From: Escherichia coli
GTDB lineage: Bacteria; Pseudomonadota; Gammaproteobacteria; Enterobacterales; Enterobacteriaceae
Length of the DNA: 64,000 nt
Assembly: GCF_030384885.1 (NCBI RefSeq)
Contig: NZ_CP128613.1
Reading direction: 5' to 3' (one strand)
A model generated the notes under the pieces. That model saw only the letters and a list, made by a program, of their open reading frames with translations. It made no database searches and had not been told where the DNA came from. Both the position numbers and the translations under genes were made by a program. Of this stretch, positions 10,574 through 19,475 are shown one piece after another (position 1 is the first letter of the stretch; each line of letters starts with the position of its first letter).

Positions 10574-12031
10574 GTGTCTGAACTGTCTCAATTATCTCCA
10601 CAGCCGCTGTGGGATATTTTTGCCAAAATCTGTTCTATTCCTCACCCGTCCTATCATGAAGAGCAACTCGCTGAATACATTGTTGGTTGGGCAAAAGAGA
10701 AAGGTTTCCATGTCGAACGCGATCAGGTGGGTAATATCCTGATTCGTAAACCTGCTACCGCAGGTATGGAAAATCGTAAACCAGTCGTCTTGCAGGCCCA
10801 CCTCGATATGGTGCCGCAGAAAAATAACGATACCGTGCACGATTTCACTAAAGATCCTATCCAGCCTTATATTGATGGCGAATGGGTTAAAGCGCGCGGT
10901 ACCACGCTGGGCGCGGATAACGGCATTGGTATGGCCTCTGCACTGGCGGTTCTGGCTGACGAAAACGTGGTTCACGGCCCGCTGGAAGTGCTGCTAACCA
11001 TGACCGAAGAAGCCGGTATGGACGGGGCGTTCGGCTTACAGAGCAACTGGTTACAGGCTGACATTCTGATTAACACCGACTCCGAAGAAGAAGGTGAAAT
11101 CTACATGGGTTGTGCTGGGGGTATCGACTTCACCTCCAACCTGCATTTAGATCGTGAAGCCGTTCCGGCTGGTTTTGAAACCTTCAAATTAACCTTAAAA
11201 GGTCTGAAAGGCGGTCACTCCGGCGGTGAAATCCACGTTGGCCTGGGTAACGCGAACAAACTGCTGGTGCGCTTCCTTGCGGGACATGCAGAAGAACTGG
11301 ACCTGCGTCTTATCGATTTCAACGGCGGCACACTGCGTAACGCCATCCCGCGTGAAGCCTTTGCGACCATTGCTGTCGCAGCTGATAAAGTCGACGCGCT
11401 GAAAACGCTGGTGAATACCTATCAGGACATCCTGAAAAACGAGCTGGCAGAGAAAGAGAAAAATCTGGCCTTGTTGCTGGACTCTGTTGCGAACGATAAA
11501 GCTGCCCTGATTGCGAAATCTCGCGATACCTTTATTCGTCTGTTGAACGCCACCCCTAACGGTGTGATCCGCAACTCCGACGTAGCAAAAGGCGTGGTTG
11601 AAACCTCACTGAACGTCGGTGTCGTGACCATGACCGACAACAACGTAGAAATTCACTGCCTGATCCGTTCTCTGATCGACAGCGGTAAAGACTACGTGGT
11701 GAGCATGCTGGATTCGCTGGGTAAACTGGCAGGCGCGAAAACCGAAGCGAAAGGCGCATATCCTGGCTGGCAGCCGGACGCTAATTCTCCGGTGATGCAT
11801 CTGGTACGTGAAACCTATCAGCGCCTGTTCAACAAGACGCCGAACATCCAGATTATTCACGCGGGCCTGGAATGTGGTCTGTTCAAAAAACCGTATCCGG
11901 AAATGGACATGGTTTCTATCGGGCCAACCATCACCGGTCCACACTCTCCGGATGAGCAAGTTCACATCGAAAGCGTAGGCCATTACTGGACACTGCTGAC
12001 AGAACTGCTGAAAGAAATTCCGGCGAAGTAA
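10574..12031 (+). CDS. pepD: Cytosol non-specific dipeptidase PepD (GTG start)
   Basis: 485 aa M20-family peptidase, MSELSQLSPQPLWDIFAKICSIPHPSYHEEQ... Confidence 0.95.
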   Translation: MSELSQLSPQPLWDIFAKICSIPHPSYHEEQLAEYIVGWAKEKGFHVERDQVGNILIRKPATAGMENRKPVVLQAHLDMVPQKNNDTVHDFTKDPIQPYIDGEWVKARGTTLGADNGIGMASALAVLADENVVHGPLEVLLTMTEEAGMDGAFGLQSNWLQADILINTDSEEEGEIYMGCAGGIDFTSNLHLDREAVPAGFETFKLTLKGLKGGHSGGEIHVGLGNANKLLVRFLAGHAEELDLRLIDFNGGTLRNAIPREAFATIAVAADKVDALKTLVNTYQDILKNELAEKEKNLALLLDSVANDKAALIAKSRDTFIRLLNATPNGVIRNSDVAKGVVETSLNVGVVTMTDNNVEIHCLIRSLIDSGKDYVVSMLDSLGKLAGAKTEAKGAYPGWQPDANSPVMHLVRETYQRLFNKTPNIQIIHAGLECGLFKKPYPEMDMVSIGPTITGPHSPDEQVHIESVGHYWTLLTELLKEIPAK

Positions 12032-12041
12032 TTACAATAAT

Positions 12042-12063
12042 GTCCACGCCTGCGGGCGTGGAC
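12042..12063. terminator. Perfect hairpin immediately after pepD
   Basis: GTCCACGCCTGCGGGCGTGGAC inverted repeat starting 11 bp after the stop. Confidence 0.6.
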
Positions 12064-12329
12064 TACTGTTTGAAGCCAATGGCTATCTATATCGAAATAA
12101 CAAAACATTATGAAACTCATGAAAAGGTCGCATATTTATATAGCTGCGACCATATTTCATGGGGAGAATTTCTGATCACCAAAGAAAGTTTTGCGCTGGA
12201 ATCCGTGAAAGAACTTAAGGGTGAAAAGCAGAATTTTTATATGTTCAGAGCCTGGGGCAAAGTCAGGAAAACATACTTAGCCACGGGAGAATTTCCCCAG
12301 GAAACATGTTACGCCGCTTAAAGTCAGAA

Positions 12330-12869
12330 TCATTTTTTCACGCGTTTTACATTTACCATTTTAGCATTACGCCTGCACCACATGGCAATGGCGGCAGCTA
12401 CTAATGCCAGTTCCAGTAAAAACGACCAGTGTAATAAAAAATTGAGCCACCACGGATGATGTACCGCCGTAATATGAAAGAGTGCAAAGGGTTGGTTAAC
12501 GAAAGGCATCAACCACCAGATATCACCGACCAGCGTATCAAGCAACAAATGCACAATACCATTCAGGCAAAACACCACGCCCAGCCACGCCGGAAGTTTA
12601 TTCTTCGCAATTGCGGCCCAGACTAATGTCGCCGCCAGCAGAGCAAACCATAATAATGGCCAATGAGACGGGTAAAGATGATGATGTCGTTGCCCGTTAT
12701 CCACCAGATAACACCAGAAGAGATCAAAATCGGGTGCAACGGCCCCGACTAAGCCAATAACCATCGCCCACCGCGCATGACGAGAAATCAGCGGTAGGCG
12801 TTTCACTAAAGTACAAGTTATTAAATATCCAGCCGGAAGATGACCGATAAACATGACGAATCCTTTCAT
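12330..12869 (-). CDS. Putative membrane-bound metal-dependent hydrolase-like protein (His-rich, multi-TM; YdjM/DUF457-like), distal gene of the rtcB-prfH unit
   Basis: 179 aa with HHHLYPSHW and HITAVHHPWW motifs in hydrophobic context; begins 48 bp after the prfH stop on the same strand. Confidence 0.45.
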   Translation of the reverse strand: MKGFVMFIGHLPAGYLITCTLVKRLPLISRHARWAMVIGLVGAVAPDFDLFWCYLVDNGQRHHHLYPSHWPLLWFALLAATLVWAAIAKNKLPAWLGVVFCLNGIVHLLLDTLVGDIWWLMPFVNQPFALFHITAVHHPWWLNFLLHWSFLLELALVAAAIAMWCRRNAKMVNVKRVKK

Positions 12870-12916
12870 TTTTGCCCGCCGCTTTCACGAAGAAAACGGC
12901 GGGTGACATTCCTCTA

Positions 12917-13531
12917 TTACACAGCGATAAAAGCCATCCCTGTAAACGTCCGTCGCGGGTTGCCACGTTCAATCTGGTGATGGAACATTCGCCGCTGCGA
13001 TTTCAGCGCCGCGCTATTTTCCTGTCGCTGTTGTTCCAGCTTCCAGGCAATCAGTAATCGCGCCAGCCGTTTGTTAGCATGCTGGCTGCGCTCTGACTGA
13101 ACCTTCACGCTAATCCCGGATGCCAGATGCGTGGCGCGTACCGCCGAGTCGGTTTTATTGACATGTTGACCGCCCGGCCCCGACGAACGCAGCGTCTCAT
13201 AATGGATCGCATCGGATTGCTCCTGCTCATCTGAAGTAAAACGCCCAATGCCCAGAAACCAGTTTTTGCGCCCATGATGAGGGCGATACGGACTCGGACA
13301 AATCCACTGGATAGTGCCACACCAGCTTTCGCTTAGTGCCCATGCGTTGTCGCCATCAAGTGAAACCAGCGCCGAACGCAGTGTGTCAGAGTAGCGACCC
13401 GTTTCTGTTTCCAGCACCGTTACCGCGACGTCTTGTCGGGCAGCTTCTTTAATCAGCCTGTCCAGTGCCTTTTTCACTGCGAGACAACATTCTTCCGGCC
13501 CCTGAGCTGAGGAGAGTTGTAGCAAGATCAT
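12917..13531 (-). CDS. prfH: Peptide chain release factor homologue PrfH (full-length, GGQ motif present)
   Basis: ORF 12917..13615; likely start [16 protein letters not shown] (204 aa) overlapping the rtcB stop (ATGA); contains [16 protein letters not shown]. Confidence 0.9.
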
Positions 13532-14667
13532 CCTTTTTTCCCTCCACTGTTTTTGAGCGTCAGCACCGGACGCAGTCGCGCGACAGGAATAATTAAACCG
13601 GCCTGCACCAGACATTGCACCACACTTTCAGCCGATTTATAGGCTTGTGGCGCTTCTTCAAAGATGAGTTGTTTATCGCGACAAATTACCCGACTGCCAA
13701 GTTCAGTACGTGAGAGTTGCGTCGCCGTGTGTTTCGCTGCCAGACGCCCTTTACACTCGGTGCGCCCCCATTTACGCCCTGCCCCATGCGCCAGCGAGTG
13801 GAGCGTTTTTTCGTTCGCAACAGGCTTAACCAGCCAGGAGTAATCACCGCGTGAACCGGGAATAATCACCAGACCGTTGTCATCCGGCGTAGCCCCTTTA
13901 CGGTGTAACCATCCTTGTTGATCGCCGATTCGACATGCGCTAACAAAGTTATGCGCCACATCCAGAACCGAATTTCCGTTGGCCTTAACTTGTTGCATTA
14001 TGCGCAAAGCGATCAGCTGGCGATTAATACGCGCAAACGCCAGCGCATCGTCATGTTCCGCAATATACCGTAGCGCGTCGTCACTGCCTTGAGGCAAACC
14101 ATGATGCGAAAACGAGGCAATATGCCGCTGTAAAATAGACTGCCCCAGCCCCCTCGAGCCGCTATGAACCAGCAGTTGCAGATGCTGCGCATCCAGACCT
14201 GCCAGTGCAAACAGTTCCGCGTCGATGATTTGATCAACTTTTTGCAGTTCTGCGAAGTGGTTTCCGCCACCGATAGAGCCAAGCGCGCAGCGCCACGGAT
14301 GCTGTGCAAACGCTGACGGCAGGTTTTCCTCCAGCCAGCTTTCTTCAGCAACGTCATCCAGCGCAGATAATCGCTTTTCAAACTTATCGGCGTTGTATTT
14401 ACGCGCGAGAATATCTGTTTGCCATAGCGCCATGCCGCAGCCGATATCATTGCCGACCAGTGCCGGGTAAAAACGGCCTACGGAGAAGAACGCTGCGCCA
14501 ATCGGATAGCCGCGTCCGGGGTGTAAATCTGGCATCCCTACTACGCGTTGCATGTCGGGTAAATTTGCCGAGGTGTGTAATTGTTGGATCGCTGAACTCT
14601 CGATCCACAGGTCATCAGATGCGATGGTAAATACCGCATCGGATAAGGGACGAATATATTTGCCCAT
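13528..14667 (-). CDS. rtcB: RtcB-family RNA ligase paralogue (RtcB2), full length
   Basis: 379 aa with His/Cys metal-ligand pattern (GNDIGCGMA...NHF...HSGSRG...HNF); translationally coupled to prfH. Confidence 0.85.
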
Positions 14668-14984
14668 GTATCATTCCATTTATACTCGTCATACTTCAAG
14701 TTGCATGTACTGCGACTGCGTTCGTTCACCCCAGTCACTTACTTTAGTAAGCTCCTGGGGATTCACTCGCTTGTCGCCTTCCTGCAACTCGAATTATTTA
14801 GAGTATATAAATATAAAAATCAAGAAATGGCAGACGAATCCAGGGCAAGAAAAAAAGAATTAATCCTGGAAAGGTCTGCAAAGAGTCATTGATAAAGGAT
14901 TTTTCATGATTTACCTCCTTGCAGTTTGTGGAATAAGAAAACGCGCACATATTAGGCGGGCGTTATTTTCATTGCAAGCTGGAT

Positions 14985-15437
14985 TTAGTGTTGCGGTTTA
15001 TATCGCATATGAAAATTAGTAAACCACGCTCCCCGGCATTCAACGCGCTGCTGCTTAACTGTCTGAAAACCATAACGTTCAAAAAAGGGTTTTGCGGTTA
15101 TGCTGGCATCTACCGTAAGTTCGGATTCAGACTTAATCAAAGGTTTTAACAAAGCGCTGGCAACCCCGCAGCGGTTGTATTTCGGATCAACAAATAACAT
15201 ATCGATATAATGCTCAATGCAGGTAATAAAGCCGACCAGTTGTGTATTAATAACCGCAACCCGCACTTGTGATTTCGCGAGTTTCTCTTTCCATCGATGT
15301 TCATCAATCTGCGCCCAGGCGGCAATTTGTTGTGGTGAATAATGCTGACTAGCGGTCATCGTAACCGCTCTAATAAAAATAGCGCATAGTTGCTGAAAAT
15401 CGCCAGGCTGATAGTTCCTTATTTGTATATTATTCAT
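14985..15437 (-). CDS. yafP: GNAT-family N-acetyltransferase YafP
   Basis: 150 aa, [17 protein letters not shown]...; 4-nt overlap with the dinB stop. Confidence 0.85.
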
Positions 15438-16489
15438 AATCCCAGCACCAGTTGTCTTTCCATTTGCGGATCAAGCAACGTCACATGCAGCCCCACCAGT
15501 CGCACACCGCGCCCGCCACGGCGTTCATCCCAGGTTTTACGCGCAGTGGCGATCAAGTCAGCTTTATTCAGCCGCGGCCAGACGTGTTCCTGGGTGGTTT
15601 GCTGAAAATCGTCGAACTTTAATTTCACCCCCTGGCGGGCAATCAGTAAATCAGGTTTTACCTTTGCCAGACGACGTTCAAGTTCCGGGTACAACCGCTC
15701 GATGATCGCTTCACATTCAGACCAGTGATGAATATCTTCCGCCATCGTGCGTTCTACACCGACGGATTTTCGCAACCTTTCGCTGTTAACGTCGCGCTCG
15801 TCAATGCCCTGACTACGCTCCCACAAAATGCGGCCAAATTTGCCAAAGCGTTTAAGCAATGTCACCAGATCACACTTTTGTACATCGCCGCAGGTTCGTA
15901 GCCCCATCGCTTCCAGTTTTGCCGCCGAGACTTTGCCGACACCGGGAATTTTTGCCAGCGGTAAGGTTTGCAGAAATGCCGGAACTTCTGCTGGCGTAAT
16001 CACAAACTGACCGTTGGGTTTATTCATGTCTGAGGCGATTTTGGCGAGAAACTTGACCGGCGCAACGCCCGCAGACGCCGTCAGTTGCAGCTCGTTGAAG
16101 ATCGTCTGGCGGATTTCCTGAGCGATAAGGGTCGCAGAGCCGTGGCAATGGACACTATCGGTGACGTCGAGATAGGCTTCATCCAGTGACAGCGGCTCAA
16201 TACGCGATGTGTAGCGAGAGAAGATTTCGCGGATATGATTTGACGCTTCTTTGTAGGCGTCAAAGCGCCCTGGAAGCAAGGTGAGATGCGGACACAGTTT
16301 GAGCGCCATGCCGGTTGGCATTGCGCTACGCACGCCAAATTTACGCGCAGGATAATTGGCGGTGCTGATCACCCCCCGGCGTTCGCGGCTGCCGCCAATA
16401 GCAATAGGGATATCGCGCAGGGCGGGATTGTCGCGCATCTCCACCGCGGCGAAAAAGCAGTCCATATCCACATGAATGATTTTACGCAT
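15434..16489 (-). CDS. dinB: DNA polymerase IV (Y-family translesion polymerase)
   Basis: 351 aa, [33 protein letters not shown]... Confidence 0.95.
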
Positions 16490-16505: not shown

Positions 16506-16521
16506 CTGGTAAAGTATACAG
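16506..16521. promoter_or_regulatory. LexA (SOS) box upstream of dinB
   Basis: CTGGTAAAGTATACAG, i.e. CTG-N10-CAG palindrome, 17 bp upstream of the dinB start codon. Confidence 0.75.
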
Positions 16522-16559: not shown

Positions 16560-17138
16560 TTAACGCGTTCGCTGCGAAAGCACCTGCTGCTTATCCAGCT
16601 TTTTCACCAACGGCTGCACCACTTTATCGCCATGCTGACCAAAATATTGATACAACGTATCGGACGCGCTTTTGGTGAGCACCATAATCTCAATGCGCCG
16701 ATTGCCCGCGCTTTGTGGATTTTTGGCATCCAGCAGCATCTGGTCCGCCATTGCGCTCACCCGCGCTTCGCCCTGTAACACCGGCTGCAACTGGCGGTCC
16801 ACCGCGCCGCCGGAAAGTGCGGTGCGTTTGTCCAGCATCTGCGTGAGCGCCGTACCCTGCGCCTGCCCGCTCTTACGCTGGCTATGACGATAATCGAGCA
16901 ATTGCTGCTCCAGTTGCCCGAGATAGTGATCCGCCTGCTGCAACGTGGTGAGCTGATCGTTAAGCTGCACGCTGTAACGCTGCGGGCGAGTGGTAATCAG
17001 CGGCGAGGCCGGATATTCACTCGCCGTCGCCGGGAGCTTTTGCCGCACCGCCTGAGTGGGCGCAACGGTTGACGACGATACCGCAGCGCTATGCGCGCCG
17101 CCGGTGGCGAGTGATGAAGATGTAAGTCCGACCTGCAT
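16560..17138 (-). pseudogene. lafU: Remnant of lateral-flagellar MotB-like gene (lafU); only the C-terminal OmpA-like tail is recognisable
   Basis: 192-aa ORF ending ...AKNPQSAGNRRIEIMVL (OmpA/MotB tail) but N-terminal region low-complexity with no TM anchor; sits between lfgL and dinB where the laf cluster would be. Confidence 0.4.
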
Positions 17139-17154
17139 ACTGTTCCTGAAAGAG

Positions 17155-18108
17155 TTAGAGAACGCTGAACAAATTCAACTCACTCACCTTCGAGTAAGTC
17201 TTGAGGGTAGCTTCCATTGCCACTTCCAGTCCGGTAAAGGTGATCGACGCCGGGCCGTAATCGAGATCCTGCAATGAACCAATCAACTCATCATTAGAGG
17301 TAGAGATATCGGTCTGCGCATCGCTCAGCATCGACATGGTGTTTTGTGTCTCGCCGAGCGACGCAATCGAGGCGTTGAGGTCGTCCGAGGCGGTGTCCAC
17401 CACATTAACGGCGTTTTGAATATCGCTTTGTACCTGCGGATCTGCCGGGTCAACGTTAGGGTTTTGCAACTCCTGCGACAGGGCATTGAGCGTGTTGAGC
17501 ACATCTAAATTGCTGCCAAAGAAATCGCTCGCCGCCACGTTGGTGTCTACTTCGACGCCGTTCGACACCGTAGTCTGGCGATGGTCGCTGTTACCCTGAT
17601 AGCTGTAGCGATCGGTCACGCCATCACCGTCATCGTCCACCGCCACAATCGGCGGTTGATCGTTGATAGTGCCGCCAAAGACGTAATGCCCGTCTTCATC
17701 CTGATAGTTGAGCGCCGCCACCATCGATTCGGTTAGCGACTCAATATCCTGACCGAGGCTTGCCAGCGAATCGGCGGTATTGGTGCCGTTCGCTGCTTCC
17801 AGCAGGTCGTCGCGCACCGCCAGCAGGCTGTTGTTGACGCCATCAAGAATGGATTCCTGCTGGCTTAAGCCCGCCGACGCGGAGTCGATATTGCTCTGAT
17901 ACTGCTCAATCGCCGACTGCTGGCGGTTCAACTGGGTGATACGTGTGGCGGCGATAGGATCATCCGATGGCTGCAAAATTTCCTTGCCGGTTGCCATCTG
18001 CTCGACCACGTGCGCCAGTTCGCCAGAAAGATTATTAAAACTTTGCGTCATCGAGACGTAGGTTTGTTGGGTGGTTACTCGCATTTTCGCGCTCCCGCTT
18101 AGCTGCAC
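17155..18108 (-). CDS. lfgL: Flagellar hook-associated protein 3 (FlgL homologue), Flag-2
   Basis: 317 aa, flagellin-like N/C termini; follows lfgK. Confidence 0.8.
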   Translation of the reverse strand: MQLSGSAKMRVTTQQTYVSMTQSFNNLSGELAHVVEQMATGKEILQPSDDPIAATRITQLNRQQSAIEQYQSNIDSASAGLSQQESILDGVNNSLLAVRDDLLEAANGTNTADSLASLGQDIESLTESMVAALNYQDEDGHYVFGGTINDQPPIVAVDDDGDGVTDRYSYQGNSDHRQTTVSNGVEVDTNVAASDFFGSNLDVLNTLNALSQELQNPNVDPADPQVQSDIQNAVNVVDTASDDLNASIASLGETQNTMSMLSDAQTDISTSNDELIGSLQDLDYGPASITFTGLEVAMEATLKTYSKVSELNLFSVL

Positions 18109-19475
18109 ATTTCCAGCACCGAATCAAAAATCTCGGCCCCGGCGGAAATGACTTTCAGATTGGCTTCATAAATTTGTTGATAGGTGATCAGGTTCACCGC
18201 CTCTTCGTCCATGCTGACGCCGCTGACGCTGCTCTGCTGGTTTTGCGCCTCAGAATAGACATTGGACGCAGCGGTCACTTCGGTCTGGTTTTGCTGAGTG
18301 TAAATGCCAATATTGCTGATGATCGACGAGCACGCTTGCCCGACCGTCACGCTGCCGAGGTTGGCTATCTCCAGCGGCTCAGTGGAGATGTTGATCAGCG
18401 CCTGCAGGTTGTCGCTGTTGCCGCTTTCGTCCGGCGAACTGGAGAACGCCAGTTCATCGGCGGTGATATCCGGGTTAACGGTCAGCGGGCCATCGGCATT
18501 ACTGGCATCGTAAATAAACAGCGGCTCGCCGGGGTTACCGTTGAGATCATAGCCCTGCGCCAGCTGATTGTTGACCGCATCGGCGAACTGCGACGCCATG
18601 CTGTTGATGGTGTCGGTCAGCGGCGTCAGCACGTCGTTTTGATAATCAAAAAGTGCGCCTAATGAACCGCCGGTATCGGTGGTCATGGTCGAGGTCGTTC
18701 CGGCAAAGGTCAGTGTCATCGTTGGCGTGCCATCGGCGTTGGTTTCCAGCGCGATGGTCGAACTTTGCTGCCCGCTCACCAGCGGCTGACCGTTTTGCAG
18801 GGTGACGTTGTAGTTGCCCTGGTCGTCGATATTGACCTGCACATCCATCATTCCGCTGAGTTCTTCCACCATCTGATCACGAGCGTCATACAGCGCGGAG
18901 GCGTTATCACCGTTGGCTTCGGCCTGGGCGATTTGCTGGTTATAGCTGGCGATGCCGCTGGTGAGCGTATTGATTTGCGACACCATCGCCTGCTGCTGGC
19001 TGATGATTTCTGTGCTTTGCGAGTCGATGTAATCGAGCGTGTTATCGATACGCAACGACAGCGCCCCGGCTTCGCTGATCACCTGCTCGCGCAGGGCAGA
19101 ATCATCGGGGCTGGTGGTCGCTTCGTTGAGGGCCGCGAAAAAGTTATCGAACCCGCCGCTCAGGCTACTGTTATCGTCGCTCAATACCGCTTCCAGTTGC
19201 GTGAGATACCCTTGCTGGGTGTTGTAATAGCCGTAATCGCTGGCGGCATACCACACCTGATTCACCTGATACTGGTTGGAGACGCGACGAATGCTGTCCA
19301 CCTGTACACCGTTTCCGGCGCTGTTCGGCGAACCGCCGCTGGCACCGATGGTGCTGATCTCCGCCACCTGGCGGGTGTAGCCCGTGGTCATGGCGTTAGC
19401 GGTGTTTTGCGCCGTGACGTTCAGCTCCACCTGCGCCGTTGATGCGCCGCTGTAGCCGATGTTAATCATGTCCAT
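18099..19475 (-). CDS. lfgK: Flagellar hook-associated protein 1 (FlgK homologue), Flag-2
   Basis: 458 aa, MDMINIGYSGASTAQVELNVTAQNTANAMTTGYTRQ... and conserved C-terminus. Confidence 0.85.
   Translation of the reverse strand: MDMINIGYSGASTAQVELNVTAQNTANAMTTGYTRQVAEISTIGASGGSPNSAGNGVQVDSIRRVSNQYQVNQVWYAASDYGYYNTQQGYLTQLEAVLSDDNSSLSGGFDNFFAALNEATTSPDDSALREQVISEAGALSLRIDNTLDYIDSQSTEIISQQQAMVSQINTLTSGIASYNQQIAQAEANGDNASALYDARDQMVEELSGMMDVQVNIDDQGNYNVTLQNGQPLVSGQQSSTIALETNADGTPTMTLTFAGTTSTMTTDTGGSLGALFDYQNDVLTPLTDTINSMASQFADAVNNQLAQGYDLNGNPGEPLFIYDASNADGPLTVNPDITADELAFSSSPDESGNSDNLQALINISTEPLEIANLGSVTVGQACSSIISNIGIYTQQNQTEVTAASNVYSEAQNQQSSVSGVSMDEEAVNLITYQQIYEANLKVISAGAEIFDSVLEMCS

Follow-up and report, generated by a model that had tools for sequence, protein, structure and literature searches.

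The rtcB2–prfH ribosome repair pair of Escherichia coli and its probably independent YdjM-family neighbour

The window, that is, the whole stretch of 64,000 nucleotides analysed here, is part of the E. coli chromosome and carries crl–frsA–gpt–pepD, the rtcB2–prfH region and then yafP–dinB–lafU, in this order. The 2.9-kb region under study matched the genome of strain 2013C-4282 at 100% (one RefSeq genome), and the RefSeq annotation already covers all genes at the locus. Five genes, dinB, yafP, rtcB2, prfH and a third gene that follows prfH, all lie on the same strand. The third gene and a short gene encoding 80 aa together make up a variable segment of 893 bp (12032..12924, no strand assigned), which is missing from most E. 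coli genomes with a full-length rtcB2–prfH pair. The edge of this segment was set by the matches of insert-less genomes, which start at query base 926, corresponding to window position 12925, and by alignment to strain SC455. In the insert-less strains the distance from pepD to prfH is 56 bp.

The surroundings of the locus showed several further features. On the minus strand at 14985–16489, dinB and yafP overlap directly. K-12 and strain SC455 have the yafN–yafO toxin–antitoxin pair between these two genes; in the window it is missing. Between yafP and rtcB2 there is a repeat of some 124 bp (14685–14808) that is dispersed over the genome. It occurs at a median of five places per E. coli genome and gave a full-length match to Rfam RF02818 (V_AS5) at 46.7 bits, under the gathering score; we take it to resemble an ERIC/IRU element. 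Just downstream of yafP, on the minus strand at 14860–14907, there is a 15-codon mini-ORF, MKNPLSMTLCRPFQD, preceded by a near-perfect AAGGAGG Shine–Dalgarno sequence. On the other side of dinB, the minus strand of 16560–19475 holds lafU, as named in the matching RefSeq record, followed by long ORFs, which suggests that a lateral flagellar (Flag-2) cluster adjoins dinB. lafU is also retained in K-12.

The rtcB2 gene (13528..14667, minus strand) encodes an RtcB-family RNA ligase of 379 aa that is paired with PrfH. Against NF007153 (cut-off 407) its product reached 639 bits, and against TIGR03073, 'release_rtcB' (cut-off 272), 617 bits; these scores place it in the PrfH-associated RtcB subfamily. 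In RefSeq it is called 'RNA ligase RtcB family protein'. The prfH gene (12917..13531, minus strand), named prfH in RefSeq as well, encodes a peptide chain release factor H of 204 aa, which scored 326 bits against TIGR03072 (cut-off 167) and has an intact GGQ motif at residues 120–122. The stop codon of rtcB2 overlaps the start codon of prfH in an ATGA (13528..13531, minus strand), which reads TCAT on the plus strand. Both RtcB2 His294 and PrfH Gln122 are present, the positions mutated in the inactive controls of an earlier study (PMC9304027), and the DNA of the pair is 94–98% identical to that of other E. coli. In a genome derived from K-12 MG1655, rtcB2 and prfH are both annotated as partial pseudogenes, in agreement with the deletion described previously (PMC9304027). 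The pair in the window is full length, keeps its key residues and is translationally coupled. The original prediction had described a full-length RtcB paralogue, a full-length PrfH with an intact GGQ motif, an ATGA coupling overlap and a form intact here and truncated to pseudogenes in K-12, and all of this was borne out.

The rtcB2–prfH pair is a known two-gene ribosome rescue-and-repair operon, already characterised biochemically and structurally between 2022 and 2026. A two-gene operon of rtcB and prfH was predicted in 2006 (PMC1586002). In 2022 the pair was demonstrated to give protection from colicin E3: on ribosomes whose decoding centre has been cut, PrfH frees the peptide, and RtcB2 reseals the 16S rRNA (PMC9304027, PMC9223846). 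Later work on the pair appeared in 2026 (PMC13166195, PMC12829566). In this mechanism, established in the literature, RtcB2 re-ligates the 16S rRNA break once the subunits have come apart. Judging from its DNA identity to the E. coli orthologues, the pair in the window would carry out the same peptide release and re-ligation. The in vivo toxin assays were performed with a plasmid carrying just the two genes in the host MG1655 (PMC9304027), and the genome derived from K-12 MG1655 lacks the third gene. Keyword searches of PMC1586002, PMC9223846, PMC9304027 and PMC12829566 turned up no third gene, no neighbouring or downstream gene and no membrane or hydrolase gene at the locus.

The third gene (12330..12854, minus strand) encodes a putative metal-dependent hydrolase of the YdjM family (PF04307), a polytopic inner-membrane protein, as assigned by Pfam. 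The open reading frame of 179 aa begins at an ATG at 12869, which reads ACG in two other Escherichia lineages. The sequence MFIGH, whose first residue is residue 6 of this frame, forms the start in all 27 aligned homologues. Because an AAGGA Shine–Dalgarno sequence stands just before the start at 12854, and because of the common MFIGH start and the lost upstream ATG, we assign the gene to 12854..12330 with a product of 174 aa; RefSeq agrees on this start (WP_000469797.1). The gap between prfH and the third gene is therefore 62 nt. The membrane protein of the original prediction thus stood, while its length (179 aa) and its distance from prfH (48 bp) did not. Likewise, the hairpin that had been proposed between the third gene and pepD was found, a terminator-like structure of pepD (12042..12063, plus strand; 9-bp stem with a T-rich tail) called by the terminator scan, and the 80-aa gene on the plus strand of this interval had been missed.

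A second, GC-rich hairpin, which the original prediction had also missed, lies between prfH and the third gene (12875..12903, minus strand). In both the minimum free energy and the centroid folds it forms a stem of 12 bp with a loop of 5 nt, and it has no U-tract. Four Escherichia lineages keep it, and a single compensatory change, from C–G to U–A, occurs in a diverged E. coli allele (locus L005). The corresponding position in other genera holds different GC-rich hairpins. The terminator scan made no call at 12875–12903. As the intergenic hairpin lacks a U-tract, co-transcription of prfH and the third gene by read-through is possible in Escherichia. A scan of 11900–15100 for sigma-70 promoters gave zero sites anywhere, against a mean of 3.7 in shuffled sequence, and because nothing was returned across the whole 3.2 kb, the scan is silent on promoters. 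A TTTACA–N19–TGTAAT pair, picked out by eye in the 3′ end of prfH, was considered as a promoter and rejected, as strains that lack the third gene have it too.

The third protein matched Pfam PF04307 with E = 1.1e-8 over residues 8–159, and the same assignment, precomputed, is attached to nearly all of its homologues. Neither the third gene nor the 80-aa gene matched anything in NCBIfam, PADLOC or PHROGs, and no solved relative of the third protein was found by a profile search of PDB sequences, which gave chance matches, or by fold. The AlphaFold model predicts five long helices (pLDDT 94, pTM 0.87). Across 106 homologues, H5, D42, D44, H58, H59, H64, H102, D106 and E148 are invariant, as are several Pro, Trp and Gly residues. 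In the same 106 sequences, Lys and Arg are enriched in loop 1 (the turn between TM1 and TM2), in loop 3 (the short loop 83–87) and at the C-terminus. By the positive-inside rule, this distribution would place the His/Asp/Glu cluster on the periplasmic side: the N-terminus, together with the His-rich loop and the 110–142 loop and hence the putative metal site, is predicted to face the periplasm, and the C-terminus the cytoplasm. Compared with three Escherichia lineages, the third gene gave dN/dS values of 0.03–0.11, consistent with purifying selection, and from these values it is a working gene.

The 80-aa gene (12079..12321, plus strand) is a conserved hypothetical gene within the 893-bp indel, convergent with the third gene, and is supported by RefSeq, by its homologues and by the codon positions of its substitutions. 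RefSeq annotates it as a hypothetical protein of 93 aa. All 13 clusters of homologues start at Met14 of that version, so the RefSeq call is 13 codons too long, and its annotated start consequently overlaps the pepD terminator hairpin. Compared with L005, 21 of the 33 nucleotide differences fall at codon position 3. The family consensus is MAIYIEI..K..E...V.Y.YS...GEFLI.K...FY..RA..KVRK...G.FPD.TCYAA; the GC content of the gene is 39%. Among the genomes seen, the gene stands at the dinB–pepD locus only in Escherichia; elsewhere no homologue was found beside pepD or a YdjM-like gene, their contexts being on contigs too short to read.

We surveyed 5,426 complete E. coli genomes, counting a pair as full length when at least 80% of the rtcB2–prfH stretch was matched. 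A full-length pair was present in 2,674 genomes, the 893-bp segment in 329 and the whole 2.9 kb in 327. About 12% of the full-length pairs in E. coli (about 327 of 2,674) are accompanied by the third gene and about 88% are not, and in none of the E. coli genomes was the third gene found away from prfH. We further sampled seven other PrfH lineages, Klebsiella (michiganensis group), K. aerogenes, Citrobacter arsenatis, Salmonella, Cronobacter, Pragia and Pseudomonas, and in none of them did rtcB–prfH have a YdjM-family neighbour. The reverse scan, with one genome per species, covered 80 loci of the third-gene family and sought rtcB and prfH within 6 kb. Neither was present in 76 of the 80 species; the four with both were two other Escherichia species, one E. 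coli and Superficieibacter electus. The co-occurrence that the original prediction had offered as a check was therefore not found as a general association, either from the side of the pair (about 327 of 2,674 in E. coli, none of the seven PrfH lineages) or from that of the family (4 of 80 species).

The order rtcB–prfH–third gene–pepD nonetheless recurs in Escherichia species, in Superficieibacter electus and in at least one further enterobacterial lineage. The closest homologues of the third protein outside Escherichia, with 69–71% identity, come from enterobacterial assemblies with the same gene order. In these three-gene loci of other genera, RtcB2 is 75–77% and PrfH 77–82% identical to the proteins of the window. 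The third protein has thus diverged roughly in step with the pair, and the linkage is therefore old and not a recent accident. One K. aerogenes genome (GCA_018445925.1, locus L083) has dinB–yafP–third gene–pepD without rtcB–prfH, while other K. aerogenes (L088–L090) have rtcB–prfH without the third gene in the dinB–pepD interval. Hence all four states of the locus exist: both, the pair only, the gene only and a truncated pair. The original prediction itself held that the third gene having its own promoter and standing next to pepD independently of rtcB–prfH in most genomes would speak against it; the L083 arrangement comes near to this, in a single genome. Insertion and repeated loss from an ancestral three-gene locus are equally likely.

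The broadest conserved neighbour of the third-gene family is creD. In 12 of 78 loci of the family (15%), creD lies immediately upstream on the same strand (L017, L018, L040, L051, L062, L063, L065, L066, L072, L077, L078 and L080; at about 4.6–6.5 kb in most). Beta-, gamma- and zeta-proteobacteria are represented among these loci; the gaps range from −7 to +77 bp, and in six loci the two genes overlap or abut. The upstream gene was identified as creD by PF06123 (E = 8e-135), and creB and creC are found further upstream in several of the loci. To our knowledge, this conserved pair of creD and a YdjM-like gene has not been described. A neighbourhood with znuC and znuB, seen at nine loci, was also considered as a functional link and judged to be lineage synteny, because these genes are two to three genes away and the inspected members are Halopseudomonas and Pseudomonas loci. 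In the NCBI annotation CreD is a cell-envelope integrity protein, and in S. maltophilia its loss compromises envelope integrity (PMC4689548). Taking the family name and the creD neighbourhood together, the third protein is most likely a metal-dependent hydrolase that would act on a substrate in the envelope or on its periplasmic face, and not on ribosomes. The YdjM-like subfamily thereby gains a functional pointer, made up of the creD and envelope neighbourhood and the predicted periplasmic active site.

A more specific reading, which we regard as speculative and very improbable, is that the third protein acts at the envelope to confer tolerance of imported nuclease toxins, such as colicins or CDI toxins. 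According to reference 23 of PMC4689548, CreD is Cet, mutation of which leads to colicin E2 tolerance. The reading arises because both recurrent neighbours of the family are then tied to surviving nuclease colicins, CreD/Cet to colicin E2 and RtcB2–PrfH to colicin E3. If it were true, the locus would, in the minority of enterobacteria that have all three genes, combine blocking or degradation of the toxin at the inner membrane with ribosome repair.

We consider it likely that the locus consists of a known two-gene repair operon beside an independently evolving YdjM-family accessory gene. The dinB–pepD interval of Enterobacteriaceae would be a variable spot at which the pair and the third gene are gained and lost independently, and this variability would account for the position of the third gene beside prfH; in Escherichia, the gene may be read through from prfH as a passenger. 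A true operon of three genes, with the membrane hydrolase aiding RtcB2–PrfH in surviving ribotoxin attack, would fit the common strand, the 62-nt gap, the lack of a canonical terminator and of any promoter-like site (on which the scan is uninformative), the persistence of the arrangement in several enterobacterial lineages and the purifying selection on the third gene. However, about 88% of the full-length pairs in E. coli and all seven other PrfH lineages lack the third gene, the pair is missing within 6 kb in 76 of the 80 species in which the family occurs, and in one K. aerogenes genome the gene stands alone beside pepD. In addition, the protection in vivo was assayed with two genes only (PMC9304027), a stable and conserved hairpin separates prfH from the third gene, and the putative active site is predicted to face the periplasm. 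Such an operon is thus unlikely in our judgement, and the three-gene unit of the original prediction is not supported. Despite the possible co-transcription and the old linkage, the co-occurrence data do not support a functional three-gene module, and the third gene is better regarded as an optional neighbour than as a third part of the RtcB2–PrfH system.

The position of the genes also raises the question of whether the third gene belongs to an SOS-regulated dinB–yafP unit, with rtcB2–prfH inserted between yafP and the third gene. All five genes share one strand, K. aerogenes L083 has the third gene directly after dinB–yafP, a LexA-box-like site is present for dinB at 16506–16521, and ydjM is among the listed SOS genes (PMC6590174). 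However, a search for CTGT–N8–ACAG with at most one mismatch found no LexA box near the third gene or, apart from a chance site inside it, near rtcB2; the other match was the site at 16506–16521, at the dinB promoter. A hairpin followed by a T-run is also visible by eye after yafP, at a spot where the terminator scan made no call, an unrelated spacer of 182 bp precedes the third gene in K. aerogenes, and the family is not beside dinB in 76 other species. Membership of an SOS unit is accordingly very improbable. The absence of the third gene from 94% of E. coli genomes might, finally, suggest a decaying or non-functional remnant, which we find hardly credible: the four Escherichia lineages compared all have the gene intact, dN/dS is 0.03–0.11, every family-invariant residue is kept, and it has a good Shine–Dalgarno sequence. 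The reading of a two-gene repair operon with an accessory neighbour therefore remains the one we prefer. Its discovery value is small, as the pair has already been predicted, characterised and annotated; its use lies in sparing a false lead, as the third gene is not to be counted in the RtcB2–PrfH system.

In comparison with known systems, the third protein resembles the YdjM/DUF457 family (PF04307), annotated as 'membrane-bound metal-dependent hydrolase', in being a polytopic helical protein with conserved His and Asp residues. We know of no member of this family with a demonstrated substrate. With a match of just 1e-8 to the Pfam model and none in NCBIfam, the third protein represents a divergent subfamily, and, in contrast to the SOS-regulated ydjM of K-12, its gene has no upstream LexA box. 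The creBC–creD envelope-integrity cluster is linked to the family in that homologues stand immediately after creD, often overlapping it, in 12 loci of diverse proteobacteria, whereas the window has no cre genes near the third gene. The closest known system for the pair is the RtcB2–PrfH operon of E. coli ATCC 25922, which has the same two genes in the same order, with the same overlap, at the same yafP–pepD locus, both full length and with the GGQ motif and His294 (PMC9304027, PMC9223846, PMC13166195; PMC1586002). The pair itself shows no substantial difference from that operon; in addition to the pair, the strain of the window has the 893-bp segment downstream of prfH.
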